A stretch of 47,060 nucleotides of DNA from Raillietiella orientalis (taxonomy: Eukaryota), in contig JAYWIR010000118.1 of NCBI GenBank assembly GCA_036172245.1, positions 62,001-109,060 of the forward strand, written 5' to 3'. The translations under genes were made by a program, and so were the position numbers. This document shows, piece by piece, positions 11,411 to 41,822 of this stretch (its first letter is position 1; every line of letters starts with the position of its first letter). A model generated the notes under the pieces. That model was not told where the DNA came from, did no database searches, and saw only the letters and a program-made list of their open reading frames with translations.

Positions 11411-12764
11411 GGAGGTGCGTTCCTCGTACCGTCCGGCGAGGCATCAGCCGGGAGCACGGCGGATGAGGTAGCGCAAGCGCTTCCTGTCCCTGCTGCGCCA
11501 CTCGCGGCCGGCTCGGTGGAGTCGAGGACCATTGCCTCGGGCTCCGAAGAGCATCGGGAACCGTTCCCGGCATGAGGCTCTTGCCTGGCAAGTTTTTGCT
11601 TGCGCGCAGCCCTGGCCTTGACCAAGGCTTGGCGAGCCTTAGCGCTGCCCTCGGACTCCACCTCGGAGTCCGAATTGCGCGCGCGCGGCGGCGGGCGTTT
11701 CGCCTGCCTCTTTGTTTGCTGGCAGCCCGGAGCTGGTCCAGCACTCTTAGAGGGTGCCTTCGTCGCCGATCCCCGTTTCGGGGTCACGGCTTCGGCAGCT
11801 CCCCTCTCGCCGCGGGTGTTTGCGGCGGCGCGCGCGGCGGCAGCAGAGGCTTTTCCTTGCGCCTCTCTGGGCGCGCGGGGTTGCCTCTTCACCCCACCTA
11901 CCTTTGTGATCGGGAAGTGGGAAGGATCGCGCGGTTTGCGCTCCTTCTTTCCCCCGACGAAGGTCCAGGCATCCTCGCCGCCTTCCTGTTTGCCCCGGTT
12001 GGGCGCGAGGGCTTCCAGGGTCCTTCGCATCCCTTTCAAGTCCTCGGATACGGCGATGGAGGCCAGTGTCTCCTTCGCCACGTCTGCCTTCTGCACCTCC
12101 TTACCGGGAGGTGCGGGCACAGTGGCGGGATTCTCGGGTGTCGCGCGAGGCTTTTCAGCCTTTGCTGGCGTTCGGCACGCCGTGGCCGGTTTGCCTGTCG
12201 CGGGCAAAGGACCGCGCGACCCCTTTTTCGACGCTCCGGTGGTCTTCCCGGGCGTGCCACCGCTATTTCGCTCCGGAGAGAGAGCGGACGAAAGCGGCGG
12301 TGGTTTTGCAGCTTGCCCGATGTTATCGGCGGGATGGGACGCTCGGGGCTTCACTGAAGCAGCCTGGAAAAGCTTCTTGTTCTTTCGCGCGGGATTTTGT
12401 GAAGCATTGCTCCGAGAATCGCCCGCGCAAGCGGACTTTTCACTTCTCCGCTGAGAATCCTCTTTCGCGCCTGATTTCTTCCCCGACGACGGGGCGGATG
12501 GAGTCGGCGCTGACGGCGATGTTGCGGGGAGGTTTCTCGCCCTCCTCTTTCGTTTTAGCTCGGCGCACTCGTTAGTCGAGTGGCCGAGCAGCTTACAGTA
12601 TCGGCAACTGCGTGTTGGGCACTTCCGCGGACGGTGGCCCTCCTTCCCGCAGTTGCCGCAAGCGGGGGTTTGCCCGGCAAACCGGAGATAGACGACGACG
12701 TCACCGAGGAGAATCTGCGAAGGCATGAGCCCCCGGTCGTCCATGGTGACGCGCGCCGTCGCAA
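11401..12764 (-). pseudogene. Element F ORF1, 5'-interrupted (two CCHC knuckles followed by a low-complexity basic tail)
   Basis: 447-aa open frame that begins mid-domain (IATARVTMDD...) at the 3' end of element G. Confidence 0.85.
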
Positions 12765-12794
12765 TTCACACCCGGATGTGCCGGGGCATTTATT
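12765..12794 (-). other. 3'-terminal AATAAA + stem-loop (element G)
   Basis: aataaa tgccccgg cacat ccgggtg tgaa. Confidence 0.85.
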
Positions 12795-14881: not shown

Positions 14882-14890
14882 TCGGCTAGA

Positions 14891-14902
14891 GCGGACGTGT
14901 TT
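14891..14902 (+). promoter_or_regulatory. 5'-terminal motif GCGGACGTGTTT (element H)
   Basis: 9 nt from the element's 5' junction. Confidence 0.55.
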
Positions 14903-16219
14903 CCTCGGTGCTCCTCGTGCCGGGAACCGTCCCTAGGTGTAGGCTTCGTGTGTGGTGGTGGTCGATCAGGCAGCAATGCCTGACGCGACTGTGGTGCACC
15001 TGTTGGTGCGTCCCCGCACGTCTCCTTCTCCAGCGAGCCACCGGCAAGACGGGACTGACGTCGTTTCTTGCACTCCGTCGCCGCGTCAACCGATGCGGAC
15101 TTCAGCTACGGAGGGTGGCTGCGCTGTATCGGAAAAACCCAGAATTGCTCACCTGTCGCCCGTTGAACAGTAGTGCCTGGTTGCAGGAAACAGTTCGAAC
15201 GTGGGGACAGTTCGGCATGCAACGCTCCCAACAGGAACGAAGGTTCCTGTTTGGGGGTTACAGAAGTTGCACGCTCTGCGAGATCATGGAGGATCCAAAG
15301 AAGAGAGCGTGGGCAGGAAGAACCCCCCTTGCTGCTGCGCTTTCCTCCCTGATGGAAGATCTAGACAGTGATGTTGCGGCGAAGTGGGTGGTTACAGTAA
15401 CAATCTCCGGAAAGGAGAAGAAGGTAGGAGAGTGTAAGACGGGCCAGTTAACAGACGCTGCGACCCCGAGTACGCCTCCCAATGGACTTCTGCTCTGGGG
15501 CGCGCTGCTCGATGTTCCCATTGAACATCTGAAGTGGCCCCCGGTGCTCATGAACACTTCCGCCCTCCCCTTAAAATGGCAGACGTCGGCTTTCCTGTTG
15601 CAGCACTGGGGACTCCCCTGCAACGCGTGCCGTCACCACTGGACCTGGGGAGCGGTGGACCCCAATTGCGTCAGGTGTGGGGAACGGGATTCCCTCCCCC
15701 TCCTGCTAGTGGATTGTGTTGCCCTTCGGCCCCTTTGGTTTCGCTTTGCCGCGGCCATTTGAAACCCCTGCGGCAACCCCAGGGACGCACTGAAAGCCCT
15801 CTTCGTTGCCGACGCCCTCCGGCCAGCGGCCTCCTTAGCAGCTTTGTGCTGCCTACGCTGGATCGTCACCGCTTGGAGGAAGGCTACGGGAGAACAACGC
15901 AACCAGGGTGCCATCCAGCCATCCTACCAGTTCCTCAGGAGGGCGTCCCGATGGCCCCACCTGGATCCAGGAATACAGAAGGAGCTTGCCGGCATCCTGC
16001 AAAGGAAGCAGCGGCCCCACCAGCAACTGTGATCCACTCCCTTACCCTTCCAACTTTTGTTTTCTTTTTTGTTTTTTTTTTTGTTTTTCCCTCTTCCCCC
16101 TACTGCCGTGGTGGACCGTATCGTTCTGCGAACCGATGACTCGGCAGGCTCTGTGTTGCTTTGAGCGTGGCTGGCGCAATGGTCCAGCCACCGCACGTCT
16201 TTGTAAATGTTTATTTTAC

Positions 16220-16250
16220 AATAAACGCCCCGGCGAAATCCGGGTAAAAA
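16220..16250 (+). other. 3'-terminal AATAAA + stem-loop (element H)
   Basis: aataaa cgccccgg cgaaat ccgggt aaaaa. Confidence 0.85.
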
Positions 16251-16447: not shown

Positions 16448-19400
16448 GTTAAAACTCTACATCCGCGGTACAAGGCCTTGCTCACGACCATATCCACTGG
16501 ACCTGCCGGGACGCCGCGACGCAGCCCAGCGTAGCGTTCCTCAGCAGCGAAGGGGGATGGGGATAAAACAAAAAGAAAAATAAAAAAATAAACAGACAAA
16601 AAGAAGTTGGAGGGCAGGGAAGGGATCACTAAACGCTTTGAGGAGGTCCCATCCGTTGAAGGATGCGCTCTCGGTCCGTCCGTATATCCGCCAGTTGGGG
16701 CCATCCGGAAGCTCTACGCATAAAGCGTTGGGCGCATGTGGCGACATCCCTCGCGTGTGGACCCACTCCTTCGTTATTGGCGTCGCTCCATGCCGTTACG
16801 ATGCCACGGAAACAGCACAAGGCTGCGATGGCTGCGGCTGGCTGCAGTGCGTCCTTCAGGAAGAATGGCCGAAGAACGTCTCTGGAGGTGCTCCCCGTAG
16901 GGAGCACGAGGTTCGCCCCGAACCGTTCCCAGAGGGGTCGAATGGCAACACTGTCCACAATAATGTGGGAGAGCGATTCCCACTCGCCGCACCTGACACA
17001 CTCAGTATCCACAGTTCCCCTTGTCCAGTGAAAGCGGCGTGCGTTGCAGGGTAAACCCCAGTGGAGCAGTAGAAACGCCGACTCTTGCAACTTAAGGGGT
17101 AGGATCTTGGATTCTTTCAGTACTGGGGGCCACTTCAGCACATCCGTATGGATGACGAGCAGCTCGCCCCATCTCATCAAACCACGCGGCTGGACGCTCG
17201 GGGTCGTGGCGTCCGCCATTCTTCTGTGGTCCAACCGCTAAACATCTTCTCCCTCCATGATATCTGGCAGGTGACTTGCCACATCGGCCTCTGGAGATCC
17301 TGAAGCGCCCTCAGGAGGTAGTGCATCGCCGTAGCAAGGAACGTCTTCAACGCCCACCTGCGACTCCGAAGAAATTCCAGTATTTCCCGCAGGGTGCGGT
17401 TGGCGTATGGGCAGATTCGCAGCCAGTTCATGTTGTTTTCACTGCTCCGGTTCTGCTTAGCCCATGTGCCAGCAAACTCTTCCAGCCAGGCGGAAGATAT
17501 GGCGAGGCCACAAAACATCCAACCGTTGTCTTCGCCAGGGTTGCTATGCATCCGAGCATAAGGACGCATCTTCGGATCTTCCGGCCAGGGCACAGAAGAA
17601 ACGATGCGAGTCCTTCGCATCGGGACACACGCCTGGCGAGGAGGCGGGCCGGAACGCACCAAGGGGTGCTCCACATCTTCGCTGCGATGGCGAGGGTTCG
17701 CCACCGCAGCTGGATTTCCACGCGCTCCAGCGTCAGGAGGCCAAGGCCGCCGTCCCTACGCGGAACGCACAAGTCCTTCAGAGGGACTCGGGGCCTTCCC
17801 TTGCCACAAAGGGCTATGCGGAGGAGGTCCTTTGTCTTCTTTTTGCATTCTCTGGGGGCGGGGCAAACAAAAAGCAAGTAGCGGAGGATGAAGGCCGCAA
17901 AAGCGTTCCAAACCGCGGCCCGTTCCGGCAAGTGAAACTTGCCTTCCAGGAACGGGCCGATCGCCGTCTCAACTTTTTGAAGACAGCTGGACCACGCTTT
18001 CGCAGGGGAGTAGTCACCCAACCGCACACCAAGGTACTTCAGGCACCTCGTCGTGGGGTTCCCTAGACGGACCCAGTCCTGATGCCCTACCAACGCCGCA
18101 CCAACTGCCACCACCGACGACTACGCCCTGTTGACCTGCAGTCCTTTGATACGGCTGAGCAGATCAAAGAAGTCTCCGACCGCCTTCTCCGGGGTGGACA
18201 TAGGTAAAAGGAGCAGAAGATCGTCGGCGTACGCTGCTACGGCGGGCGTGGCGGGGCACGAGCTCGGCTAGGGTGCCAAGGTAAACCTGTACGCTCTCAG
18301 CACCAACTCAATGTAGGTGCTGAAGAGCAGGGGACTAAGGTTGTCGCCCTGCCGTATGCCCCGCCGTAACAGCACGATGTACGCCTCCTGACTGATAGAA
18401 AAGATGGAGATCATCGCATTCCATTAGCAAGAGCGCAGGTAGGTAATCAAGGAGGATGGGAAGCCCATGCGACCCAGGAGCTCCAACAAAAGCACCTGGT
18501 CAACACAGTCGAACGCCTTATGGAGATCGACTGCGAGCGCTAAGGCCCCCTTCCCTGCCCAAGTGTCCATTCCCTACCCTGCTTGCGGCCCCAAATTGGG
18601 GTTGCCGATTTTTCCTCTCCCTTCCTTTTGACACCTCTGCGCGTGTATCCATGTCCTCGCGAAGAAGAGGTTGGCATCCATGCTTCGCCCGGGAACAGCA
18701 TAAGTCTGCTCCGGGCTAATTATGGATTCTGCCACCTGCCCCGGACGCGAAGCCCATAGCCCCGCAACCAACTTGGCGTCCGTATTCACAATCGTGATCG
18801 GACGCCAGTTGTTCAAATTCCTAAGGTCTCCCCCTTTCGGAAGGAGCCTCACTCTGGCTGAACGAAACGAGGCGGGAACATCGCCTTCGCCTCGGATCAG
18901 CCTTGTCAGCTGAAGCAGCAGGGGTGCCAGCTCTTCCGCAAAGCTCTGAGAGAACTCCGCGGGCAAGCCGTCTTACCTTGGAGCTTTCCGCCTCTTGAGC
19001 CTTTTGATACCGGCGAGAATTTCGCCGGTGGTAAAAGGCTCATCGAGGCTTAACGACTCCTCCTCCCCTATTCTCGCGACACCGTCCGGAAGCAAGAGCC
19101 AAGAAACATCTTGATCCGGGGGCGCCCTGGCGTAAAGGAAGCAATAATAACTCCGCACGAGATACCGTACCGACGCCGGGGACGAACATTCCCGGCACTG
19201 GTCGTTCAGAAAGCTGGCCGACCCGGATTGCCAGACTTGGCGTTCGGCCCCGGCGCGGTACTCGGCCAGGCGACGGGCATTAGGAGTTCGCTCGTAGCTA
19301 CGGGCCTGTAAATAGGCCCGATGGTTGCGAGGACCCTAGCCGAATCCGGAGGGCAGGCGGTCCAGGGGGAACTGCTCGCAGAACTCCCGGACCGATTCCT

Positions 19401-19751
19401 TAAAAAGGTCCCAGTCCTAAAGAATCGAGAGCGTGACGTCTCTCAGGTATTCGCGAAGGTGTTCCTTTGCACCTGAGAGTCGCAACCAGTCCGCGGGTAG
19501 ACGCCAGTCCCTGAATGGCAGTCCTTTGTCGCGATGCCGCATCTGGAAATTTAACCGGGAATGGTCCGACAACGTTGATGCAACCCTCCCTTGTTTGCCG
19601 ACACGTTAACACAGTTCAGCGTCGAGGAACACGTGGTCGATGCTGCGGACCATTCCCTTTTCACCCGCGACCAAGTTTTGCGCACGCATGGCGGCGCACA
19701 ACTCGTTCATAGCGTTCACTTGTGTTTCCGGCTCACCTGTTTGCAGGCGGA

Positions 19752-19760
19752 GATTGAAAT
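19752..19760. repeat. 9-bp TSD gattgaaat, copy 1 of 3
   Basis: Also at 25667-25675 and 31579-31587. Its reverse complement lies in the GDFN codons of element J's endonuclease. Confidence 0.9.
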
Positions 19761-19790
19761 TCATCACCCGGTCTAGCCGGGGAGTTTATT
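19761..19790 (-). other. 3'-terminal AATAAA + stem-loop (element K1)
   Basis: aataaa ctccccgg ctaga ccgggtg atga, then the TSD. Confidence 0.85.
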
Positions 19791-20072
19791 AATAATAATA
19801 AGCTGGTCAGGGACAATGCCCCAACCAACAGAACGACAGAGAACACAGAAAATCTACCGGCACGCAGTCCTGTTAAACAAACCGCTCGCAGCGTGGGGGG
19901 AATGAGGGGAAACAAACAAAAATCAAAAACTGGGGGGAAGGGAAAAGGGTTTTTGGTTAGGCTCCGTACTCACGGGGACTTATACGATGAGCACCTGAAA
20001 TGTTCCGGAGCCTATATGGAGGCGGGTGTAAAAACAAAATACAAATTTAGTTTATGGAGGGTAGGGCAATGA

Positions 20073-23000
20073 TCACCGGGTTGGCCGCTGATGAGGGTGT
20101 GTAAACCGGCGGTGTATTGCGGCGAGATTCCTTTTTGTCTCCTCTGTCAAATGAGGCCATCTAGCGGATGCTCCCATGTAGAAGGATGCTTTGCTGATTA
20201 CCTCTTGGTACTATTCGTTAATTACCAACGCCTGGCGGACAAAAGCTATCGCGCGTATGCAACCGATGGTTGTAATCCTTGCGCTTAGTGACAGCCCGCT
20301 CGGCGTGAAGAATCGTCGCAGAAAGTCTCTTGCGGTGTCCACGGGATGCAATAGTGCTGTTGCCAGCCTACGCCACAGTCCTTGTAGGACACCGCAGTCC
20401 AGAAGTAGGTGCGGAATCGACTCCGTCGATCCGCACCGAACGCAGTTCGCAGACGCAAGTCCCCCGGAGTCACGATGCCAACGCTCGTTGCACTGAAAAC
20501 CCCAGTGAACGAAAAGCAGCACAACTTGTTTCCAAGGAAGAGGGAGCAGCGAACTGTCAATACACTGTGGAGGGACTACAAGTTCTTCGGAATTGACAGC
20601 AAGTTCTTCTGCCCACCATAGGAGTCCCTTTGCAGTAAAACGAGGAGTGGCGGCGTCCGCCAACTCACTCGTCTTCCAGGCGCCAAGGATTTTGGTTTTT
20701 CCCGCTATCGTGCAAAAAACCTCCCACCTCGCCGGTTGGTAACTGTCGTTTCTTGCCCTAAGGGCAGACAGCGCTGCGGCAAGAGGCATGGCAGCCAGGG
20801 TAGAAAACTTCACCTCGTCCTGCAGTACTTCTTCCAAGGATCGTGAAAAAAATTGACGCAGGGGCCGAAGATCCTCAGGGCGTATTCCTTGGATCGCCGA
20901 CCAGGATTCAACAGACTCCTGCCGCCAAGCTTCAAAGTTTATTGGGCGGCAGGAGATCCACGAGTGAGCATCCAGAAGTGCGGTCAACTGCCGCAAAGGA
21001 GACCCGAAACCCCGCTTCCTGTATTGAGTGCTCGGCAAAAGCGAGAGAAATCCCTAGCTGCCGGCGCATCTCCGCAGGAGAATGCGGGATGGCACACACA
21101 GGGGGGATGTCCATAGCTGGGCACACAGTGCCAGCAGTCGGAACTGCACCTGCAGTCCCATTCGCTCCATTGTCAAGATAAACAAACCAGCATTCCGACG
21201 CGGAGCTCACAAATCTTTAAGGCGGATTCTGGATCTCGCCGGACCCCAGAAAGCGTTCCTGAGCAGTCGTTTAGCCCGCTGTTTTGCCGCATAGGGGGGG
21301 TCAAAAACCAAAAACGGAGGACGGAGGAGGGGGGCCACAAAGGTGTTCCAAATAGTCGCCCGTTCCTGCAAGGTAAACTTGCCGTTAAAGAACTGGCTGA
21401 TGGCCAACTCTGCTTTCTGAAGACAGTCCGCTCACGCTTCGGCTGCGCCGAAAGCGCCCAACGGAACGCCAAGGTAATTAAAGTACCCGCCCGTGGGGAT
21501 CCCCAGGCGGATCCAGTCGGACTGCCCCTCCCACGACGTACCCACAGGAACGACCACGCTATTCTCTCTGTTCACGCTCACGCCCGCTCCCCGACGAATC
21601 AGGTCAAAGAAATCCTCGACACTGGACGCCGGGGTGGACATGGGAAGAATAAAAAGCAGGTCATCAGCGTAGGCGGCCACGGCAGGCGTTCCCGGGCAGG
21701 AGCTTGGCAACTGAGACAGCGTCAGCCTGTATGCTCTTAGCAGCAACTCAAAGAAGATGCTGAAGAGCAAGGGGCTTAAGCTGTCGCCCTGTCGGATGCC
21801 CTTACGAACGGGAATACCATACACGCGGCAGCCGCTGAAAGTAATGCACGTTAGCGCGTGGCGCCAGCACGCGCGCAAATACAGCAGGAGTTGCGCCGGG
21901 AACCCAAGGCGTTCCAGAAGCTCCAAAAGCAGCTTCTGGTATACGCAGTCGAACGCCTTGTGGAGATCGACCGCGACCGCCAAGGCACCTGGCGTTCCCT
22001 CCTGCCGTCGGCGCCTGTTCTTCTTGCCTGCGGCAGTGACTTTCGCAGCAGCCTGGCTTTGCTGCGCCACAACTTCCTGCAGCTGCATCCATGTACGCGC
22101 GAAAAGGATGTTCGCCTTCATGGATCGTCCCGGAACCGCGTAGGTTGGTTCCGGGCTCACCACAGATTCCGCGATACTTTCTAACCGCGCGACCCACAGC
22201 TTGGAAAACAACTTGACGTCCGAGTTCACCAAGGTGATCGGACACCAGTTGTTAAGTTGACGCAAGTCCCCGCCTTTCGGCAGGAGACGCCCCTTCGCTG
22301 AGCGGAAGGAATCCGGGACATTCCCGGATTCACTCATCAGCGTCGCGAGTTTCAGAATCAAGGGAATGAGGTCCACTTCAAAGCACTGATAAAACCCTGC
22401 AGGAAGCCCATCATCGCCTGGCGCCTTTCGTCTCTTCAGCCCAGCGTTGGCGTACGAAAATTCATCCGCCGTGAAAAGCTCGTTGAGACGTTCGCGTTCC
22501 TCCTCGCCGACAACACGAGCATCCTGAGACAGGAGTATCTCAGAAAGAATATCCTCCGTCAGGGATTCCGCGTACAGCGAGGAGTAGTAGCGTCTAACGA
22601 TGCGGTGTACTTCGGCTGGGGCCGAACATTCCTGGCCCTTGTCGTCCAACAAGCATGCTGCTCCGGACTGCCAGACCTGGCGCTCGGCCCTCGCCTTGTA
22701 CTCCGCAAGACGCTTGACATCCGCGTGTCTCGAAAACGTGCGGGCCTGCAGAAAGTCTCTACTGTTGGCCACGCCCTCTCCGAAACCGCGTGGAAGCCGG
22801 TGCAAGTGGAATTATCAACAGAATTCGCGGACAGATCTTTTGAGATCGTCCCAGTCCGCAAGTTCTTGAATGGCAAAGCCCCGGAGGTATCCACGTAGAT
22901 GCTCCGCAGCCTCCGGTTGGCTCAGCCAATCCGCCTCCATCCTCCAGCTTTGCAACGGAGGCCCCCTGCCTGGCGGAAGGATCTGAAACTCCAACCTGTG

Positions 23001-23666
23001 GTGGTCAGACAGCTCAGTCAACAATCTTTCTCTCCTGCCCACACGCGAATGCAGGTTTTCATCGAGGAAAACGTGATCGAGCGATCTTTCCATTCCAGGT
23101 TCGCTGACCATCAAGTTGGCGGCGGAAACGGACGCGCACATCTCGATGGGCAGCGCGCGCTCCCTCGGGCGGCTCCAATCGTCGGAGAGCAGGCGGACGT
23201 TGAAGTCCCCAGCGACGAGGTGCGCCACTTGGAAGCCGGAGTTGTTGAGCCACTGGCTCTGCACCTCACCAAAGAAAGCTACTCTTTCTTCGAGGTAGCG
23301 AGAGCCACTCGGCGCGTAGACGTTCGTAACGACGAGATCGATGGACTCGGACCACTTGATGACAAGCTGGCCTATCCGTCCATCGTCATCGAAACGAACA
23401 CTACGCACCGCTTCCGCCGTTTTTCCTCTTACGAGGAACGCGACGCCGCACGTGTGTGCGCCGTCGCACCGCCAATGTAGCGTTCCGCCTGCGCGCTCCT
23501 CGATTTCGGCTGCCTGCTCGTCGGAGATTACGTGAATCTCCTGCAGGAGCGCGAGGTCGAAGGGGCGCAGTGCGTTGGCTACTAATCGCCTCTTCTCGTC
23601 GTTCTGTAGTCCGTTCACGTTCCAACACGTTACGGACAGACGACGAGAAGACGCGATTCCCCGCAT
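20073..23666 (-). pseudogene. K1 ORF2 (APE endonuclease, reverse transcriptase, CCHC finger; ~1190 codons) with premature stops
   Basis: ORF pieces 22815-23666 (EN), 21432-22805 (RT with AAYADD), 21207-21407 and 20211-21038 (CVRCGSTESIPHLLLDC). Confidence 0.92.
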
Positions 23667-25492
23667 TACTGCTGGGAAGGTGGCGGCTTTTTGCTCGCTT
23701 TATCCGGCGAGCAGACGGCGAGTAGCACGACTGGCTGGAGAGGACGGTCGCCACCGTCCTCTGTTGTGCTGCATGCATGTAATGCCTCCACGCCAGGCTG
23801 AATTCCGTCGGGTTTCGTGGAGACTTCGCGTTGCTTCGCGGCGAGCGTTGCCTGGCTGCCTACTTTTGATCGGCGCGCACACGCTTTCGAACGAGTTGTC
23901 CTCGTCTCGGTGATCGGAACGGCATCCATTTCGGAGTTCGACCGGCGCATGTTCGATCGGGTTTCGGCCTTCCGCGGAGCAGTGACAGGTTCTGCTGGAT
24001 TGACATCTGTCCTGTTTTCGTTTTCCGTCACCAGAGCATCGCTTTTGGTGACGGCTGCTTTCCCGGCGCGCGCGTTTTCAGCGTGCTCACGCGCAGAAGC
24101 ACGAGGGACCTTTGCTGAAGTCTTCTTTACTTCATTACGGTTCCTCACTTCGCGTGGCGCCGTAAATGGAGATTGTGCTCCATGGCCATCTTTGAAGCCA
24201 TCCGCGTCTTTGGACGGGAGCACTTTCGATGGCTCCGACACGCTCGTCATGGACGCTGCTTTCGGAAGGGCTTTTAATCCCTTCGTTGGCATGGCATCCG
24301 CGCCAGTCGACAGCTTGCTCTCCGACTGCGACGGCGTGAGATTTTTCTCCACTTTCGCGGTGTTCGATCGCGACGCGGATTTTTTTTTGCCGACTTTCGA
24401 AGTCGACACGGCACAACTTTTCTTACCCGATTTGGGCTTCTCAGCCACTGCAGGAGGTGTAGGAATGGATCTGACGGTACTGGAAGTGTCCTTACCGCCG
24501 TTGTCCATTGACGTCCCCGCCGGTTGCTCGAACTCCGAGAGAGCCGGGCGTGCTTGGGAAGGACAGCTATTGCGCCTAGGGGGACTTACCCTTGCCCCGG
24601 ATTCCCCGCACCCTTTCTTTTGCGGCTCCCCTGCCGCGAGAGGGGGTGCGCAGGGCTTCGCGTGCGAGGTTTCCTGCTGCTTTGGGGCGACATTCCGCCT
24701 CGCGTTTTTACCGAATTTCTGCCGTGGGGTCTCCAGGTTTTTCGCAGATTTTTTCTTCTTATCCGCGCTTTGTTTTTTAAAATGGAGCTCCGCGGCTGCC
24801 TTTTTTCGCAAAAGATCCGGGCAATTTTTCAATTGGTGCCCGGATAGTTTGCAATAACGGCATTTTCCAGAGGGGCATTTATCCAAACAATGCCCCTCCT
24901 TCCCGCATTGCTCGCACGTTTTTACTTTGCCCACGAACCACAGGTGAACGACCGTGTCATTCACCTGTAGTTTGGTAGGCAGCAGACGGCGGTCCGGCAT
25001 TGTAAGCCGGGCTCCAGCGACTCCGCTGTGTATGGACGGGAAGTCCTTGAGGTTGCTACGCACCCTCCACAGCGCATGGACCGTGGCGAATTTCGCCAAC
25101 GCGTTCCGAATATCAGTATCGGAGATTTCCGACTCGATGTCGAAAATCTCCACCACAAATGAGTCGTCCATGGCGGCCGGGAAGACCTTCTGGCCACGGA
25201 TCGACAACGGGGTGCGCAGCAAGCGTTGCACAAGTGCAGCGTCTTTGCAACGCACCTTGAAATAGCCCATGTCTTTTACGGGCATAATGGTGAGAAGGTC
25301 CTCCTCCCGCACGCCAACACGGGTCAGTTCATCGTTGAACTGATTCCCGTCGCGCGCAGAAAGAAAACCACTCACCTTATATCGGAGAGGAGGTCTATAG
25401 CCTTGGGCTTCGTATGCCCGCAACTCCGACTCGTCAAGTGGTTTCCCTTCGACGGCTGCTGTGGCAGCAACGTCAGCAAAACTCCTCTCCAT
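23666..25492 (-). CDS. K1 ORF1 protein (608 aa open; the N-terminal extension seen in K2 is cut by a TAG near 25506)
   Basis: CEQCGKEGHCLDKC and CRYCKLSGHQLKNC knuckles; near-identical to K2 ORF1. Confidence 0.8.
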   Translation of the reverse strand: MERSFADVAATAAVEGKPLDESELRAYEAQGYRPPLRYKVSGFLSARDGNQFNDELTRVGVREEDLLTIMPVKDMGYFKVRCKDAALVQRLLRTPLSIRGQKVFPAAMDDSFVVEIFDIESEISDTDIRNALAKFATVHALWRVRSNLKDFPSIHSGVAGARLTMPDRRLLPTKLQVNDTVVHLWFVGKVKTCEQCGKEGHCLDKCPSGKCRYCKLSGHQLKNCPDLLRKKAAAELHFKKQSADKKKKSAKNLETPRQKFGKNARRNVAPKQQETSHAKPCAPPLAAGEPQKKGCGESGARVSPPRRNSCPSQARPALSEFEQPAGTSMDNGGKDTSSTVRSIPTPPAVAEKPKSGKKSCAVSTSKVGKKKSASRSNTAKVEKNLTPSQSESKLSTGADAMPTKGLKALPKAASMTSVSEPSKVLPSKDADGFKDGHGAQSPFTAPREVRNRNEVKKTSAKVPRASAREHAENARAGKAAVTKSDALVTENENRTDVNPAEPVTAPRKAETRSNMRRSNSEMDAVPITETRTTRSKACARRSKVGSQATLAAKQREVSTKPDGIQPGVEALHACSTTEDGGDRPLQPVVLLAVCSPDKASKKPPPSQQ

Positions 25493-25648
25493 TGGCGAGA
25501 AAGACTAAGTGGAGGCGGCCGTCGGTTCCGCGATTGGAGATCCGGATGCTGTTCCTCCAACTTCGGTAGCTTCAAGTTGGGTCGACATCGTCGTCAAAGT
25601 GTACGACGCCAAGATGAAGCGGATGAAAGCACGGAGACGAGAGCGAAG

Positions 25649-25666
25649 AAAAACACGTCCGCACTC
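25649..25666 (-). promoter_or_regulatory. 5'-terminal motif GAGTGCGGACGTGTTTTT (element K1)
   Basis: Begins immediately after the TSD. Confidence 0.6.
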
Positions 25667-25675
25667 GATTGAAAT
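25667..25675. repeat. 9-bp TSD gattgaaat, copy 2 of 3 (between K1 and K2)
   Basis: Sole spacer between the K1 5' end and the K2 3' end. Confidence 0.9.
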
Positions 25676-25705
25676 TTATCACCCGGTCACGCCGGGGCGT
25701 TTATT
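25676..25705 (-). other. 3'-terminal AATAAA + stem-loop (element K2)
   Basis: aataaa cgccccgg cgtga ccgggtg ataa, then the TSD. Confidence 0.88.
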
Positions 25706-25988
25706 AATAATAATAAACTGGTCAGGGACAATGTCCTTAACCAACAGAACGACAGAGAACATAGAAAAATTACCGGCACGCAGGCCTGGTAAACAAACCG
25801 CTCGCAGCGTGGGAGGAATGAGGGGAAACAAACAAAAATCAAAAACTGGAGGGAAGGGTAACGGGTTTTCGGTTAGGCTCCGTACTCACGGGGATTTAAA
25901 CGATGAGCACCTAAAATGTTCCGGAGCCTATGGGGACGCGGGTGTAAAAAGAAAATACAAAAATAGTTTATGGAGGGTAGGGCAATGA

Positions 25989-28900
25989 TCACCGGGTTGG
26001 CCGCTGCTGAGCGTGTGTAAACCGGCGGTGTATTGCGGCGGGAATCCTCTTTGTCTCCTCTGTCAAATGAGGCCATCTAGATGATGATCCCATGTAGAAG
26101 GATGCTTTGCTGATTACCTCTTGGTGCTGTCCGTTGATTACCAACGCCTGGCGGACGGAAACTATCGCGCGTATGCAACCGATGGTTGCAATCCTTGCGC
26201 ATAGTGAAAGCCCGCTCGGCGTGAAGAATCGTCGCAGCAAGTCTCTTGCGGTGTCCACGGGATGCAATAGTGCTGTTGCCAGCCTACGCCACAGTCCTTG
26301 TAGGACACCGCAGTCCAGAAGTAGGTGCGGAATCGACTCCGTCGATCCGCACCGAACGCAGTTCGCAGACGCAAGTCCCCCGGAGTCACGATGCCAACGC
26401 TCGTTGCACTGAAAACCCTAGTGAACGAAAATCAGCACGTCTTGTTTCCAAGCAAGGGGGAGCAGCGAACTGTCCATACACTGTGGAGGGACTACAAGTT
26501 CTTCGGGGGTGACAGCAAGTTCTTCTGCCCACCGGAGGAGTCCCTTTGCAGTAACACGAGGAGTGGCGGCGTCCGCCAACTCACTTGTCTTCCAGGTGCC
26601 AAGGAGTTTGGTTTTTCCCGCTATCGTGCAGGAAACCTCCCACCTCGCCGGTTGGTAACTGTGGTTTCTTGCCCTGAGGGAGACAGCGCTGCGGAAAGAG
26701 GCGTGGCAGCCAGGGTAGAAAACTTCACCTCGTCCTGCAGTACTTCTTCCAAGGATCGTGGAAAAAATTGGCGCAGGGGGCGAAGATCTTCAGGGCGTAT
26801 TCCTTGGAACGCCGCCCAGGATTCAACAGACTCCTGCCGCCAAGCTTCAAAGTTCATTGGGCGGCAGGAGATCCACGAGTGTGCTTCCAGAAGTGCGGTC
26901 AACTGCCGCAATGGAAACCCGAAACCCCGCTTTCTGTATTGAGTGCCCGGCAGAAGCGAGAGAAATCCTCCGCTGCCGGCGCATCTCCGCAGGAGAATGC
27001 GAGCTGGCACACACAGGGGGGATGTCCATAGCTGGGCACACAGTGCCAGCAGTCGGAACTGCACCTGCAGTCCGATTCGCTCCATTGTCAGGATACCCAA
27101 ACCAGCATCCCGACGCGGAGCTGACAAATCTTTAAGGCGGATCCTGGATCTCGCCGGACCCCAGAGAGCGTTCCTGAGCAGGCGCTTAGCCCGCTGTTTT
27201 GCCGCATAGGGGGGGTCCAAAACAAAAAACAGGGGACGGAGGAGGGGGCCACAAAGGTGTTCCAAATAGTCGCCCGTTCCTGCAAGGTAAACTTGCCATT
27301 AAAGAACGGGCTGATGGCCAACTCTGCTTTCTGAAGACAGTCCGCCCACGCTTCGGCTGCGCCGAAAGCGCCCAACGGAACGTCAAGGTACTTAAAGTAC
27401 CCGCCCGTGGGGATCCCCAGGCGGATCCAGTCGGACTGCCCCTCCCACGACGTACCCACAGGAACGACCACGCTCTTCTCTCTGTTCACGCTCACGCCCG
27501 CTCCCCGAAGAATCAGGTCGAAAAAATCCTCGACACTGGACGCCGGGGTGGACATGGGGAGCAGAAGAAGCAGGTCATCATCGTAGGCGGCCACGGCAGG
27601 CGTTCCCGGGCAGGAGCTTGGCAAGTGAGACAGCGTCAGCCGAATGCTCTTAGCATCAACTCAAAGAAGATGCTGAAGAGCAACGGGCTTAAGCTGTCGC
27701 CCTGTCGGATGCCCCTACGAACGGGAATACCATACACGCGGCAGCCGCTAAAAGTGATGCAGGTTAGCGCGTGGCGCCAGCACGCGCGCAAATACAGCAG
27801 GAGTTGCGCCGGGAACCCAAGGCGTTCCATAAGCTCCAAAAGCAGCTTCGGGTTTACGCAGTCGAACGCCTTGTGGAGATCGACCGCGACCGCCAAGGCA
27901 CCTGGCGTTCCCTCCTGCCGTCGGCGCCTGTTCTTTTTGCCTGCGGCAGTGACTTTCGCAGCAGCTTGGCTTTGCTGCGCCACAACTTCCTGCAGCTGCA
28001 TCCATGTACGCGCGAAAAGGATGTTCGCCTCCATGGATCGTCCCGGACCCGCGTAGGTTTGTTCCGGGCTCACCACAGATTCCGCTATTCTTCCTAACCG
28101 CGCGACCCACAGCTTGGAAAACAACTTGACGTCCGAGTTCACCAAGGTGATCGGACGCCAGTTGTTAAGTTGGCGCAAGTCTCCGCCTTTCGGCAGGAGA
28201 CGCACCTTCGCTGAGCGGAAGGAATCAGGGACATTCCCGGATTCACTCATCAGCGTCGCGAGTTTAAGCATCAAGGGAATGAGCTCCACTGCAAAGCACT
28301 GATAAAACTCTGCAGGGAGCATATCCTCGCCTGGCGCCTTTCGTCTCTTCAGCCCAGCGATGGCGGACGAAAATTCATCCGCCGTGAAGGGCTCGTCGAG
28401 ACGTTCGCGTTCCTCCTCGCCGACAACACGAGCATCCTGAGACAGGAGTATCTCAGAAAGAATATCCTCCGTCGGGGATTCCGCGTAGAGCGAGGAGTAG
28501 TAGCGTCTCACAATGCGGCGTACTTCGGCTGGGGCCGAACATTCCTGGCCCTTGTCGTCCAACAGGCATGCTGCTCCGGACTGCCAGACCTGGCGCTCGG
28601 CCCTCGCCTTGTACTCTGAGAGACGCCCGACATCCGCGCGTCTCGAAAACGTGCGGGCCTGCAGAAAGTCTCTACTGTTGGCCACGCCCTCTCCGAAACC
28701 GCGTGGAAGCCGGTGCAAGGGGAATTGGCAACAGAACTCGTGGACAGATCTTTTGAGATCGTCCCAGTCCGCAAGTTCTTGAATGGCAAAGCCCCGGAGG
28801 TATCCACGTAGATGCTCCGCAGCCTCCGGTTGGCTAAGCCAATCCGCCTGCATCCTCCTGCTTTGCAACGGAGGCCCCTGCCTGGCGGAAGGATCTCAAA

Positions 28901-29578
28901 CTCCAACCTGTGGTGGTCAGAAAGCTCAGTCAACAATCTTCCTCTCCTACCCACACGCGAATGCAGGTTTTCATCGAGGAAAACGTGATCGAGCGATCTT
29001 TCCATTCCAGGTTCGCTGACCATCAAGTTGGCGGCGTGAACGGACGCGTACATCTCGATGGGCAGCGCGCGCTCCCTCGGGCGGCTCCAATCGTCGGAGA
29101 GCAGGCGGACGTTGAAGTCCCCAGCGACGAGGTGCGCCACTTGGAAGCCGGAGTTGTTGAGCCACTGGCTCTGCACCTTACCAAAGAAAGCTACTCTTTC
29201 TTCGAGGTAGCGAGAGCCACTCGGCGCGTAGACGTTCGTAACGACGAGATCGATGGACTCGGACCACTTGATGACAAGCTGGCCTATCCGTCCGTTGTCA
29301 TCGAAACGAACACTACGCACCGCTTCCGCCATTTTTCCTCTTACGAGGAACGCGACGCCGCACGTGTGTGCGCCGCCGCACCGCCAATGTAGCCTTCCGC
29401 CTGCGCGCTCCTCGATTTCGGCTGCCTGCTTGTCGGAGATCACGTGAATCTCCTGCAGCAGCGCGAGGTCGAAGGGGCGCAGGGCGTTGGCTACTAATCG
29501 CCTCTTCTCGTCGTTCTGCAGTCCGTTCACGTTCCAACACGTTACGGACAGACGACGAGAAGACGCGATTCCCCGCAT
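25989..29578 (-). pseudogene. K2 ORF2 (EN-RT-CCHC) with frameshifts and YADD>YDDD
   Basis: ORF pieces 28508-29578, 27636-28868, 27088-27624, 26621-27265 and 25989-26267. Confidence 0.92.
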
Positions 29579-31500
29579 TACTGCTGGGAAGGTGGCGGCT
29601 TTTTGCTCGCTTTATCCGGCGAGCAGACGGCGAGCAGCACGACTGGATGGAGGGGACGGTCGCCACCGTCCTCTGTCGTGCTGCATGCATGTAATGCCTC
29701 CACGCCAGGCTGAACCGCGTCGGGTTTCGTGGAGACTTCGCGTTGCTTCGCGGCGAGCGTTGCCTGGCTGCCTACTTTTGATCGGCGCGCACACGCTTTC
29801 GAACGAGTTGTCCTCGTCTCGGCGATCGGAACGGCATCCATTTCGGAGTCCGACCGGCGCATGTTCGATCGGGTTTCGGCCTTCCGCGAAGCAGTGACAG
29901 GTTCTGCTGGATTGACAGCTGTCCTGTTTTCGTTTTCCGTCACCAGAGCATCGCTTTTGGTGACGGCTGCTTTCCCGGCGCGCGCGTTTTCAGCGTTCTC
30001 ACGCGCAGTTGCACGAGGGACCTTTGCTGAAGTCTTCTTTACTTCATTACGGTTCCTCACTCCACGTGGCGCCGTAAATGGAGATTGTGCTCCATGGCCA
30101 TCTTTGAAGCCATCCGCGTCTTTGGACGGGAGCACTTTCGATGGCTCCGACACGCTCGTCATGGACGCTGCTTTCGGAAGGGCTTTTAATCCCTTCGTTG
30201 GCATGGCATCCGCGCCAGTCCAGAGCTTGCTCTCCGACTGCGACAGTGTGAGATTTCTCTCTGCTTTCGCGGTGTTGGATCGCGACGCGGATTTTTTTTT
30301 GCCGACTTTCGAAGTCGACACGGCGCAACCCTTCTTACCCGATTTGGGCTTCTCAGCCACTGCAGGAGGTGAAGGAATGGATCTGACGGTACTGGAAGTG
30401 TCCTTACCGCCGTTGTCCATTGGCGTCCCCGCCGGTTGCTCGAACTCCGAGAGAGCCGGGCGTGCTTGGGAAGGACACCTATTGCGCCTAGGGGGACTTA
30501 CCATTGCCCCGGATTCCCAGCACCCTTTCTTTTGCGGCTCCCCTGCCGCGAGAGGGGGTGCGCAGGGCTTCGCGTGCGAGGTTTCCTGCTGCTTTGGGGC
30601 GACATTCCGCCTCGCGTTTTTACCGAATTTCTGCCGTGGGGTCTCCAGGTTTTTCGCAGATTTTTTCTTTTTATCCGCGCTTTGTTTTCCAGGATGGAGC
30701 TCCGCGGCTGCCTTTTTTCGCATGAGATCCGGGCAATTTTTCAATTGGTGCCCGGATAGTTTGCAATAACGGCATTTTCCAGAGGGGCATTTATCCAAAC
30801 AATGCCCCTCCTTCCCGCATTGCTCGCACGTTTTTACTTTGCCCACGAACCACAGGTGAACGACCGTGTCTTTCACCTGTAGTTTCGTGGGCAGCAGACG
30901 GCGGTCCGGCATTGTAAGCCGGACTCCAGCGACTCCGCTGTGTATGGACGGGAAGTCCTTGAGGTTGCTACGCACCCTCCACAGCGCATGGACCGTGGCG
31001 AATTTTGCCAACGCGTTCCGAATATCAGTTTCGGAGATTTCCGACTCGATGTCGAAAATCTCCACCACAAATGAGTCGTCCATGGCGGCCGGGAAGACCT
31101 TCTGGCCACGGATCGACAGCGGGGTGCGCAGCAAGCGTTGCACAAGTGCAGCGTCTTTGCAACGCACCTTGAAATAGCCCATGTCTTTTACGGGCATAAT
31201 GGCGAGAAGGTCCTCCTCCCGCACGCCAACACGGGTCAGTTCATCGTTGAACTGATTCCCGTCGCGCGCAGAAAGAAAACCACTCACCTTATATCGGAGA
31301 GCAGGTCTATAGCCTTGGGCTACGTATGCCCGCAACTCCGACTCGTCGAGTGGTTTCCCTTTGACGGCTGCTGTGGCAGCAACGTCAGCAAAACTCCTCT
31401 CCATTGGCGAGAAAGACGAGGTGGAGGCGGCCGTCGGTTCCGCGATTGTAGATCCAGATGCTGTTCCTCCAACTTCAGTAGCTTCAAGTTGGGTCGACAT
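29578..31500 (-). CDS. K2 ORF1 protein, intact 640 aa (MSTQLEATEV...PPPSQQ), gag-like with two CCHC knuckles
   Basis: Uninterrupted frame from the ATG at 31500 to the TAA overlapping the ORF2 ATG. Confidence 0.88.
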   Translation of the reverse strand: MSTQLEATEVGGTASGSTIAEPTAASTSSFSPMERSFADVAATAAVKGKPLDESELRAYVAQGYRPALRYKVSGFLSARDGNQFNDELTRVGVREEDLLAIMPVKDMGYFKVRCKDAALVQRLLRTPLSIRGQKVFPAAMDDSFVVEIFDIESEISETDIRNALAKFATVHALWRVRSNLKDFPSIHSGVAGVRLTMPDRRLLPTKLQVKDTVVHLWFVGKVKTCEQCGKEGHCLDKCPSGKCRYCKLSGHQLKNCPDLMRKKAAAELHPGKQSADKKKKSAKNLETPRQKFGKNARRNVAPKQQETSHAKPCAPPLAAGEPQKKGCWESGAMVSPPRRNRCPSQARPALSEFEQPAGTPMDNGGKDTSSTVRSIPSPPAVAEKPKSGKKGCAVSTSKVGKKKSASRSNTAKAERNLTLSQSESKLWTGADAMPTKGLKALPKAASMTSVSEPSKVLPSKDADGFKDGHGAQSPFTAPRGVRNRNEVKKTSAKVPRATARENAENARAGKAAVTKSDALVTENENRTAVNPAEPVTASRKAETRSNMRRSDSEMDAVPIAETRTTRSKACARRSKVGSQATLAAKQREVSTKPDAVQPGVEALHACSTTEDGGDRPLHPVVLLAVCSPDKASKKPPPSQQ

Positions 31501-31560
31501 CGTCGTCAAAATGTACAACGCCAAGATGAAGCGGATGAAAGCACGGAGACGAGAGCGAAG

Positions 31561-31578
31561 AAAAACACGTCCGCACTC
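31561..31578 (-). promoter_or_regulatory. 5'-terminal motif GAGTGCGGACGTGTTTTT (element K2)
   Basis: Begins immediately after the TSD. Confidence 0.6.
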
Positions 31579-31587
31579 GATTGAAAT
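31579..31587. repeat. 9-bp TSD gattgaaat, copy 3 of 3
   Basis: Abuts the K2 5' end and continues into host EN (AHLIAGDFN on the minus strand). Confidence 0.9.
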
Positions 31588-32046
31588 CTCCCGCTATCAG
31601 GTGAGCCTTCCGCACGTTCGTGTCCGCCAGCCAGTCGCGCTTCAGGGAATCCAGCAGCCTCGTACGGTCGCTGTATCCCTGTTTACCGCTGGGGGCGTAC
31701 ACATTCGTGACGATCAATTCGATCGAGTCGGACCAGCTGAGAATCAGCTGACCGACCCGAGCGTCGTCATCGAAGCGCACGCCCTTCACGGCCGCGTCGA
31801 TGGCCGGCTTCACGAAGAACGCGACCCCGCAGGTGTTGCGGAGGCCGCACCCCCAATACAGCCGACCCCCCGCGATCGTCTCGATCTCCTGGGCGTCTGC
31901 CGCGGTGATCACGTGGATCTTCTGCAGCAGGGCCAGGTCGAGCTCACGCAGGGTGTCGGCCGTATCTCGCCTGTTACCGTCGTCGCGCAGCCCGTTGACG
32001 TTCCAACAGGCGGCGCGAATCCGACGGCGACTGGCGAGCCCAGGTG

Positions 32047-33798
32047 TAATTCCTGGGAAGATGGCGATGTGGCGTCCACCACCTGTTGGGGCGGGACGCT
32101 AGGTGGAGGAGGAGGGTCAGGCGCTGCGTGCACCTGGTCCCCCTCCTCCATCGGTGCCGGCGCGTCGGCCGGATCACCCGCAGGTGGAGTCGCGCCTACC
32201 TGTTCGCCCTTCTCCATGGAGGCGGGCTGTTCAGGGTCGGCGCCTGCAGGGGGGACTTCATCCCCCTGTTCACCCTCCTCCATGGCTATGGCCGGATCGA
32301 CGGCTTGCGAGCGTAAGAATTCCTCCTGCGAATTTCCCACGCTGGCGACGGCTTCCGTCTTCTCCTTCTCGCTGGTGGAGGGGAGGCGCCTCCTGGGCTT
32401 CTGGGACTTGCGTCCCGACTTCCTGGGGGGTGCCTCCGAGGAGGAGGATCTGCTTCCGGCCTCCAGGTCTAACTCACCTGTGGAGGCCATCTTCGCCGTA
32501 GCCGGCCTTCGCACGGCGTTGCGCGAGGGATTCTCACGCTCTGCCAGCGTGACCGCGTGCTCCTCCGCCGCCTGCGCGAACGCGGCGTCCGCGGCTTCGA
32601 CCGCCGCTATGTCGCGCGGCTCACCCTCTGTGTTTACAGAGGGTTTGCCGTCGCGAGCCTCCGGCGCAGCGGAAACGGCAAGGGGAGGATCGACACTCCG
32701 TGTGGCAAACTCGGGAACGACGATTTGTTCTAGTGCCACCGTGTTCTCGCGCAGAGTTTTCGAGCGCGGACCGGGTTTTTTTTGGCTAACCGGCCGTCTT
32801 GCGCTGTTTGCTCTCCGCGGGTGGGAGTTTTCTCGGCTTTCTAGCTTCTACAAGGTGCCATCCCTCTTCGCCTTCCACCGTTTCAGAAGGTTTATCCTCC
32901 GGCTTACACGCCGGCGGTTGAGGTGTTGGCAGCTTGTGCTGGCCCTTTTGCACTTTAGTTTTAGAGACCTTTGAAGAGCGTTTCCCCTGCGCTTTCTTCG
33001 CGGTAGGGGGAACCGGGGTGGGGCGTTTCTGTCACACGCTCCGAACGGAGCCCCGCTCCCCGCGCAAATGGCATTGTATATTGGGACACCTTTTACGTAG
33101 GTGTCCCGCGGTATCACAATGCCAGCAATACCGGGGCTTCCCTACATACCACAAGTCGACGTTTTCTTGTGCCACCTTTAGTTTGTGGAGAAGACCAGAA
33201 TTCTCCCGTACGGTGACCCGCGCTGCAGCCTGCCCACCAAAAAGGCTATGGAAGCCGTCGAAAATGGAAGGTTTCGGCCACAGTGCGTGCACCTCACCGT
33301 ACTTTCTTAATTCCTCACCAACCGCTGATAGCGTCATTAGGCTGGTGATGCCAGTCATGTGGACCACCACGGAGCGGTCCATGGATACTGGCAGGATCTT
33401 GCGGCCGTCTACGTTCAGCGGCGCATGGATTAGGCGGTGAGCCAAGGTGACATCTTTGGAGACCACCTCGACCCGCTGCCCGCCGCTGAGGACGGAGAGG
33501 CCGTTTAGATCCTTCTCAGTATCATTCGCGTCCTTCAATGCTTTGCTGAAGGCGCGCGCTGAACGGCCGTCGAAGAAGTTGCCTACCTGGTAGACAAGCG
33601 ATAACTTGTACCCTTAGGCCTTGTATGCGGCCATCTCCGCCATGGCTTCTGCGCTGGGCGCGGCCACCATGGCGCTCCATGTCCTCGGCGTGGCCGGGGA
33701 TGTTTCCGAGGCGGCTGCTTCTGCTCCAGTAGGCTGTGGGGGAGAACTAGCCTCCCCCAATCCCACCTTTATCGCGGTGTTCTCTGACGTCGTGACCA
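32047..33798 (-). pseudogene. Element J ORF1, disrupted
   Basis: ORF pieces 33614-33835, 33032-33538 (WYVGKPRYCWHCDTAGHLRKRC) and 31909-32739 (MEEG repeats). Homologous to element C ORF1. Start approximate. Confidence 0.8.
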
Positions 33799-33871
33799 TT
33801 GGACACCAACGATGTACCCAAAACACCACACACAAGAAAGCGCTTTCCTACTACTCTTCGGAGAGTGGAGG

Positions 33872-35539: not shown

Positions 35540-35569
35540 TTGTCACCCGGATATGCCGGGGCATTTAAT
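35540..35569 (-). other. 3'-terminal ATTAAA + stem-loop (element N)
   Basis: attaaa tgccccgg catat ccgggtg acaa. Confidence 0.85.
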
Positions 35570-41792: not shown

Positions 41793-41822
41793 TTCTCACC
41801 CGGTCACGCCGGGGCGTTTATT
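41793..41822 (-). other. 3'-terminal AATAAA + stem-loop (element P)
   Basis: aataaa cgccccgg cgtga ccgggtg agaa. Confidence 0.85.

Follow-up and report, generated by a model that had tools for sequence, protein, structure and literature searches.

Why should two full-length copies of one retrotransposon stand in tandem at a single nucleotide position of another element? This question is raised by a 47,060-nucleotide (nt) stretch of Raillietiella orientalis DNA (contig JAYWIR010000118.1; the whole 47-kb stretch is called the window below), in which K1 and K2, two copies of a long interspersed nuclear element (LINE) that we call K, lie on the minus strand inside a related, older LINE, the host, and are bordered and separated by the same 9 bp. 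Based on sequence comparison, we consider it likely that K integrates site-specifically into the part of an older, related LINE family that codes for the endonuclease, and that it re-entered the regenerated site here, with the younger copy placed upstream.

Two full-length LINEs alternate with three copies of one 9-mer

The arrangement consists of five features, given in coordinates of the window:

19752..19760, minus strand: target-site duplication, copy c, downstream of K1 in the sense of the element; sense strand ATTTCAATC
19761..25666, minus strand: K1, full-length LINE, apparently the older copy, with seven private stop codons (from alignment, domains and polarisation)
25667..25675, minus strand: target-site duplication, copy b, between the 3' end of K2 and the 5' end of K1
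25676..31578, minus strand: K2, full-length LINE, apparently the younger copy, with four private 1-bp deletions, one stop codon and YDDD
31579..31587, minus strand: target-site duplication, copy a, upstream of K2, within the host codons GGA GAT TTC AAT (31580-31591)

The 9-mer, GATTGAAAT on the plus strand, was found at 19752, 25667 and 31579 and nowhere else in the window, compared with 0.21 expected occurrences, and none of 100 shuffles reached three. Its copies delimit a direct repeat with a period of 5912-5916 nt. K1 (5906 nt) and K2 (5903 nt) align end to end at 95.8% identity with the same 5' and 3' terminal bases, and differ by 248 substitutions (136 transitions and 112 transversions) and five one-base indels. 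Both the length of the target-site duplication and the element termini are constant across the K1 and K2 junctions, and the K2/K1 junction is base-perfect, passing from the K 3' end through the 9-mer to the K 5' end with host sequence neither added nor lost. The two copies share the orientation of the surrounding host LINE. An earlier note on this DNA had read the locus as two K copies alternating with three target-site duplications, with identical end points in spite of many substitutions, and both descriptions were borne out by the 9-mer count and the alignment.

The insertion site lies in the endonuclease active-site codons of the host LINE

The flanks of K1 and K2 are those of one older, decayed, related LINE on the same strand, whose two parts are listed here together with the equivalent codons of K itself:

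16797..19751, minus strand: host LINE, part 3' of the insertion, with the rest of the endonuclease, the reverse transcriptase (RT) and the C-terminus; 26-54% amino acid identity to K; heavily decayed
31588..33841, minus strand: host LINE, part 5' of the insertion, with the N-terminal half of the endonuclease and remnants of open reading frame (ORF) 1
23199..23210, minus strand: K1's own GDFN codons, GGGGACTTCAAC
29111..29122, minus strand: K2's own GDFN codons, GGGGACTTCAAC

Both host parts matched the K endonuclease in tblastn at 47-51% identity, and the match of the upstream part to positions 3-115 of the Exo_endo_phos profile fell just short of the cut-off (E 2.7e-4). Decay of the host is also seen in the absence of any minus-strand ORF of at least 150 amino acids between 18120 and 19760. 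As the earlier note had stated, K sits inside the host's GDFN codons: GGA GAT TTC AAT (G D F N) at 31580-31591 is followed by CTC CGC from 19751 downward. The upstream host part encodes ...LLDSLKRDWLADTNVRKAHLIAG, the 9-mer supplies (D)FN and the downstream part encodes LRLQTGEPETQ...SIDHVF, and the host reading frame, ...AHLIAG^D F N^LRLQTG... (carets mark boundaries here and below), runs on across the insertion. The 9-bp duplication starts with the second base of GAT, covers TTC and AAT in full and stops after the first base of CTC. In K, the corresponding ...AGDFNV... aligns with ...MGDFNT... of the human L1 endonuclease (residues 144-147 in the 1vyb/2v0r numbering), in which D145 and N147 are catalytic.

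Read in the sense of K, the target is ...CTGATAGCGGGAG^ATTTCAATC^TCCGCCTGC (...GCGGGAG^ATTTCAATC^TCCGCC). The host target is thus ATTTCAATC inside GGAGATTTCAATCTCC, the counterpart of which in K is GGGGACTTCAACGTCC, and within the window GGAGATTTCAAT is read by this host element alone. The different reading of K's own site that the earlier note had pointed out, GGGGACTTCAACGTC within the GDFN codons GGGGACTTCAAC, was found as described; its nine bases differ from the target 9-mer at three positions, two of which are synonymous third positions (T>C). Three other related copies in the window, all unoccupied, carry GGAGACTTCAAC, GGGGACTTCAAC and GGGGACTTTAAC at this point, and in unoccupied other LINE copies of the window the site reads GACTTCAAC or GACTTTAAC.

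A separate observation concerns the symmetry of the site: the uninterrupted target (31576-31591 plus 19749-19751), GGAGAT-TTCA-ATCTCC, contains a 6-bp inverted repeat around the cut sites, and at K's own site the inverted repeat has 4 bp only (GGAC...GTCC).

K1 and K2 differ in age and in their disabling mutations

The order of duplication, K, duplication, K, duplication is also exactly the exchange product expected if a single K insertion had been followed by local tandem duplication, through unequal exchange or replication slippage between the 9-bp duplications, and both copies had then decayed in place. The defects of the two copies were compared with this in view:

25505-25507, minus strand: K1 stop TAG, nt 160, ORF1
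22815-22817, minus strand: K1 stop TGA, nt 2850, ORF2
22812-22814, minus strand: K1 stop TAA, nt 2853, ORF2
21432-21434, minus strand: K1 stop TGA, nt 4233, ORF2
21207-21209, minus strand: K1 stop TGA, nt 4458, ORF2
21054-21056, minus strand: K1 stop TAG, nt 4611, ORF2
K1 nt 5454, minus strand: K1 stop TAG, ORF2
beside 28879, 27642, 27249 and 26681, minus strand: K2 one-base deletions, equivalent to K1 nt 2701, 3939, 4333 and 4902
K1 nt 5163, minus strand: K2 stop TAG
about 27582, minus strand: K2 change of YADD to YDDD

The disablements that the earlier note had listed are all present, but its list was incomplete, as K1 has seven stops and K2 four deletions and one stop besides YDDD. The search for shared inactivating mutations that it had proposed returned none common to K1 and K2. 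Taken alone, this absence fits either model, and it carries no information in case an intact copy was duplicated. At the four deletion points of K2 the length of K1 equals that of every outgroup; two of these deletions fall in homopolymers (G5 and C6) and are possible assembly errors, and two lie outside such runs.

Decay in place should give a ratio of nonsynonymous to synonymous substitution rates (dN/dS) of 1, whereas the dN/dS between K1 and K2, a comparison that the earlier note had also suggested, is 0.475 in ORF1 and 0.518 in ORF2. We ran 2000 neutral simulations in which the observed base changes were redistributed at random over the coding sequence while their base and CpG context was preserved. 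The synonymous fraction was 0.351 as observed and 0.260±0.030 as simulated, with 5 of the 2000 simulations reaching the observed value; under an extreme model, in which all GC/AT differences were taken as GC>AT, the simulated fraction was 0.280±0.030 and 18 of 2000 reached 0.351. The excess is modest. Part of the K1/K2 divergence therefore reflects purifying selection on replicating lineages and did not accumulate in place.

The 248 differences were then polarised with 12 related LINE fragments of the window that are 57-71% identical to K1 over aligned columns. This assigned 97 derived changes to K1 and 43 to K2 and left 108 unresolved (binomial p about 1e-5). Stricter polarisation gave K1:K2 ratios of 66:24, 55:17 and 51:14 (binomial p 1e-5 to 4e-6), and the six closest outgroups on their own gave 92:29. 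The two copies are thus of unequal age, K1 being the older and K2 the younger, and the unequal counts therefore speak against local duplication, whose twins should be equally old. As far as sequence comparison can tell, the evidence favours two separate targeted insertions, and we regard local duplication as improbable.

A further copy of K occupies the same nucleotide of a different host copy

Other copies of K and of the host were found in a public run, X1 (Logan contigs), in which 37% of the sampled words are present and of which six of 61 loose ends are shown. The K contigs of X1 are K2-like, differing from K2 at 52 sites in 3755 nt, 20 in 1040 nt, 6 in 739 nt and 1 in 217 nt, as compared with 123 and 65 sites at which K1 and K2 differ over the two longest of these stretches. 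K1 is thus the outlier among K1, K2 and the X1 copy, and the much closer relation of the X1 copy to K2 is a second point at odds with local duplication. At 25737-26432, 11 of the 12 listed differences between X1 and K2 carry K1's base; these changes are therefore private to K2, from which the X1 copy is distinct. At three of the four K2 deletions the X1 contigs carry the extra base.

With regard to the flanks of other K copies, which the earlier note had wished to see compared, one other K 3' junction was available. Two X1 contigs run from the K 3' end through GATTGAAAT into a host-like flank that has 23 of 30 bases as in the window flank (hand count) and reads, in sense, DFN-LRLLSVDPKT against DFN-LRLQTGEPET in the window. 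Because this flank is homologous and yet only 23/30 alike, K has gone into another copy of the host, at the very same nucleotide, and local duplication leaves this second locus with the same 9-mer unexplained. One X1 contig extends 30 nt past the K 5' end, covering the 9-mer and a further 21 nt of the host, and another joins 19751 to 31579 with nine shared letters and represents an empty site, its shorter side being just 30 nt long. The X1 contigs of the host parts are 90-95% alike, showing that the host family is multi-copy. Two further runs, X2 and X3, yielded no aligned contigs, which does not speak for absence.

Several other signals were set aside. Two X1 loose ends, before 25674 and behind 25705, had been candidates for K in an unrelated target; they match only the last ~30 nt of K and are not K, because their flanks resemble the junction at 41792/41793, where a LINE of family O meets the endonuclease region of an element N. 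The X1 joints 29116>31676 (side 20) and 19506>19622 (side 25) have sides too short for reading. A metagenome scan with a 16-mer from the K 3' untranslated region (UTR) gave 119 loci, none of which matched K beyond the 16-mer in blastn, as expected of chance matches.

Weighing the alternatives

A number of observations weigh against repeated targeting. Only three insertion events at two loci have been seen, for which reason our confidence in a site-specific K is only moderate, and the evidence for the second locus comes from one run, in which two short-read contigs give a flank consensus of 30 nt. No X1 contig crosses the K-K junction, so that the tandem is without independent read support. All four coding 1-bp deletions fall in K2, the supposedly younger copy with fewer substitutions. 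Stop-containing codons number 7, against 6.4 expected under full neutrality, and the K1/K2 differences are for the most part neutral in appearance; selection therefore accounts for a small component and most differences are decay, as local duplication would also have it. Finally, local duplication does take place in this region, as other segments of the window are duplicated too (identities of 84%, 92% and 97% over lengths of 3, 1.3 and 0.7 kb).

K might also have no sequence specificity and be drawn to LINE clusters by chromatin or region, in the way of the LINE Zepp, with a loose nick-site taste (A^AT), the shared site being coincidence or a structural hotspot. The window would suit such a preference, as it is a LINE-only cluster: 74.8% of it lies under tblastn matches to the K ORFs, the gaps fit UTRs and divergent ORF1, and of 27 further ORFs eight have RVT_1, Exo_endo_phos or zf-RVT domains and none has any other family. 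Eight LINE 3' ends adjoin other LINEs, mostly followed by AT(T/C), and Zepp is said, in the available text of PMC8226300, to target existing copies. Yet three K events at the same nucleotide in two host copies go far beyond a preference on the scale of tens of kb, K always lies in host sense, and its ends are precise and identical in both copies; we think a merely regional preference very unlikely.

An assembly artefact, in which two alleles or paralogous loci with one K each at the same host site were joined as a false tandem, would account for the missing junction contig, and the two K2 deletions in homopolymer runs are like long-read errors. The K1/K2 junction is nevertheless base-perfect with no extra or missing host sequence, false duplications seldom stop exactly at element termini, and an artefact of this kind would still require two independent K insertions at the same site, leaving site specificity standing. 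We give it as little credence as the regional preference. Least probable of all is that K spreads when host copies recombine ectopically or convert one another, akin to intron homing and without a targeted endonuclease of its own. The multi-copy host family and the occupation of one site in two host copies could be cited for this, but conversion would carry the flanks along, whereas 7 of the 30 bases beside the 9-mer are different in X1, and it would create neither a 9-bp duplication nor a tandem pair. The proposal of the earlier note that K is site-specific for the endonuclease active-site sequence of related LINEs is thus supported, on the few events represented by K1, K2 and the X1 copy.

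A possible mechanism for repeated insertion

Under site-specific insertion, K would use target-primed reverse transcription to integrate at a single position of the host endonuclease-coding region. The bottom strand would be nicked at the left of the two boundaries marked above (window plus strand ...GATTGAAAT^CTCCC) and the top strand cut 9 bp downstream. Such staggered cuts would produce the 9-bp duplication that splits the host G-D-F-N active-site codons, and K would land in host sense orientation every time. As the upstream host sequence and a 9-mer would be left intact by the insertion, the site could be cut again: K1 would have entered first and K2 later at the upstream 9-mer copy, giving the order duplication, K2, duplication, K1, duplication. 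Because the younger K2 lies upstream of K1, the second event would have used a 9-mer with host sequence upstream but the K1 5' end downstream (ATC^GAGTGC, not ATC^TCCGCC). The recognition determinants would then reside in the 9-mer and upstream of it, second-strand cleavage would be set by distance, and arrays are predicted to grow at their 5' side.

Specificity might be provided by the K endonuclease, by annealing of read-through RNA (...AUUUCAAUC...) to the nicked target, or by both. Pairing of read-through RNA with the target has precedent in R1 and R2. Target specificity borne by the endonuclease has a precedent in R1Bm, according to the available text of PMC1919474. The synonymous differences at K's own GDFN codons may protect K from itself, as the earlier note had supposed. 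It is also possible that K is co-transcribed from the host LINE, because all K copies seen are in host sense and the K leader is just 78 nt long.

A bolder picture, which we put forward as speculative and rather doubtful, would make K a 'hyperparasite' LINE that homes to a competing LINE and splits its catalytic D-F-N codons, rides host transcription by virtue of its sense landing and 78-nt leader, and owes self-immunity to the two synonymous T>C changes and one further change in its own GDFN codons; more broadly, the LINE families of the cluster, sharing one 3' hairpin, would build a LINE-only, centromere-like domain by sequence-directed nesting in each other's coding regions. If K is indeed site-specific, it would be a case of a retrotransposon that uses a competitor LINE as a safe harbour and at the same time disables it, and would offer a base-level mechanism for the growth of LINE-only (Zepp-like, possibly centromeric) clusters. 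Its endonuclease would be a natural enzyme of the apurinic/apyrimidinic endonuclease (APE) type with a long defined recognition site, for which K's own near-identical site would serve as a built-in negative control, and could be useful for studying how such nucleases read DNA.

Organisation and affiliation of K

K has a two-ORF layout with ORF1 upstream of ORF2. In K1 numbering, the 78-nt leader lies upstream of ORF1, which runs from the ATG at nt 79 to the TAA at nt 1999-2001; ORF2 runs from the ATG at nt 2001 to the TGA at nt 5592-5594, a terminal stop common to K1 and K2, and is followed by a 3' UTR of ~310 nt that ends in ...AATAAACGCCCCGGCGTGACCGGGTGATAA with a short hairpin and no poly(A). 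The ORFs are placed as follows:

23666..25588, minus strand: K1 ORF1, K nt 79-2001, the TAA of which overlaps the ORF2 ATG (TAATG)
20073..23666, minus strand: K1 ORF2, K nt 2001-5594, with APE-type endonuclease, RT (YADD) and a weak zf-RVT-like C-terminus
29578..31500, minus strand: K2 ORF1, open throughout
25989..29578, minus strand: K2 ORF2, interrupted by one stop and four 1-bp deletions

In K1 and K2 alike, ORF2 on the minus strand carries Exo_endo_phos and RVT_1 domains. The former spans the full profile (3-225; E 6.1e-13 in K1 and 7.2e-13 in K2) and the latter has E 2e-16, the RT centre being YADD in K1 and YDDD in K2. The Cys-rich, zf-RVT-like tail, with E 0.0024 and 18.9 bits, lies below the cut-off of 27.5 bits, and related copies in the window reach 24.9 and 26.2 bits. 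In ORF1, no Pfam match passed E<=0.01; the one to zf-CCHC (E 0.16) lacks significance. The closest solved relatives of the K endonuclease are human L1 endonuclease chains. K is an L1-group LINE from an unsampled lineage, because its database relatives, apart from one metagenome fragment that is 59% identical, show no more than 31% identity; these latter are unnamed or are plant, vertebrate and fungal L1-like proteins.

At 23664-23668 and 29576-29580 (K nt 1999-2003), the sequence TAATG holds both the stop of ORF1 and the start of ORF2; related copies have an ATG at the same point, which in copy O overlaps a TGA stop (TGATG). This overlap suggests that ORF2 may be translated by termination-reinitiation. 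The first 99 nt of K2 (31480-31578, minus strand) fold with greater stability than shuffled sequence (z -3.15), 1 of 200 shuffles being as good, and form a 5'-terminal stem at nt 1-40. An Rfam scan of 19500-31900 returned no ribozyme or other family; a sub-threshold microRNA match (30.2 bits against a gathering score of 61) was taken as chance.

The surrounding LINE cluster

At least five related LINE families, 65-74% identical to K at the nucleotide level, are nested in both orientations in the window, and their fragments are truncated, unlike the full-length K1 and K2. Eight LINE 3' ends of several families have a common terminal motif of ~30 nt, consisting of AATAAA(C/T)GCCCCGGC, a variable loop and CCGGGTGA.AA:

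5525-5554, minus strand: 3'-end motif
10308-10337, plus strand: 3'-end motif
12765-12794, minus strand: 3'-end motif
16220-16249, plus strand: 3'-end motif
19761-19790, minus strand: 3'-terminal 30 nt of K1, with a 5-bp CCCGG/CCGGG hairpin and no poly(A)
25676-25705, minus strand: 3'-terminal 30 nt of K2, with the hairpin as in K1
35540-35569, minus strand: 3'-end motif
41793-41822, minus strand: 3'-end motif

The 5-bp CCCGG/CCGGG stem is invariant in all eight, none has poly(A), and the UTRs are otherwise unalignable. Each of these ends adjoins another LINE, usually at A^AT(T/C). The common 3' hairpin probably serves throughout the clade as the structure that the RT recognises; its case is one of conservation alone, because the folding energies of the 3'-end hairpins are not unusual (z -0.6 to -1.7). 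At the six LINE 3' ends other than those of K, the search for target-site duplications gave only 7-8-nt matches, which is the chance level. The same holds for H, a short 5'-truncated LINE copy (14775-16249, plus strand) possibly bounded by an 8-nt repeat, AATTGACG, at a spacing of 1482 nt.

At 41792/41793, following ...CAAGAGAT, the endonuclease-coding region of element N is met in antisense by the 3' end of LINE O. This O/N junction is repeated in two X1 contigs with a flank about 26/30 alike, and family O may also have a preferred site. A similar junction between elements D and C (5524/5525) is found 27 nt farther on in the homologous host sequence.

Over 3 kb, 8622-11607 and 37259-34272 form an inverted segmental duplication (84% identity). 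It carries a composite junction in which a LINE 3' end stands against another LINE at the K-equivalent nt 3059 (10337 and 35540), and its nested structure appears to have been copied as a block. Two more inverted repeats, 920-2184 versus 16254-14990 (92.4%, 1.3 kb) and 10874-11559 versus 47059-46374 (96.8%, 0.7 kb), could be either same-family LINE copies or local duplications.

Comparison with known systems

Among target-specific elements, a close likeness is to Tx1L of Xenopus, a member of the Tx1 clade in the L1 group that inserts at one sequence inside the DNA transposon Tx1D. Tx1L and K are both APE-type L1-group LINEs with a fixed target in another mobile element; they differ in that the target of K consists of the nuclease active-site codons of a related LINE, whereas that of Tx1L is a DNA transposon. 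More generally, the targets of specific non-LTR (long terminal repeat) elements, as given in the available part of PMC4640811, are ribosomal RNA, small nuclear RNA (snRNA) and transfer RNA genes, microsatellites, telomeric repeats and transposons, and the APE-type target-specific elements named there belong to the R1 and Tx1 clades. The APE-type endonuclease of R1Bm cuts both strands of one defined sequence (PMC1919474, in the text available). R1 and K have in common a constant target-site duplication and precise ends. R1 resides in 28S ribosomal DNA and belongs to another LINE group, whereas the best matches of K are L1 endonucleases and L1-like ORF2 proteins.

The clusters of Zepp (Coccomyxa/Chlorella) and ZeppL (Chlamydomonas) are, in the available descriptions, LINE-only and built by nested insertion that 'targets existing copies' (PMC8226300, PMC3446292). 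By these descriptions they resemble the window of K in being GC-rich L1-type elements in a LINE-only nested cluster. In contrast, Zepp arrays are described as consisting mostly of 5'-truncated 3' ends and the accessible accounts describe no base-level target, whereas the K pair is full-length and has a 9-bp duplication at a defined codon. Tandem copies at the target are shared with Utopia-1_NVit, a site-specific non-LTR element for which the available text of PMC4640811 records occasional tandem insertion in U2 snRNA genes, a case analogous to the R1/Tx1-type arrays to which the earlier note had likened the locus; unlike K, Utopia has a restriction-like endonuclease and an snRNA gene as its target. 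A limited search of the literature, which left the original Zepp papers outside, found no LINE aimed at the endonuclease codons of another LINE. What sets K apart from these systems is where it lands: full-length copies have gone in more than once at a fixed 9-bp position within the endonuclease active-site codons of a related LINE.

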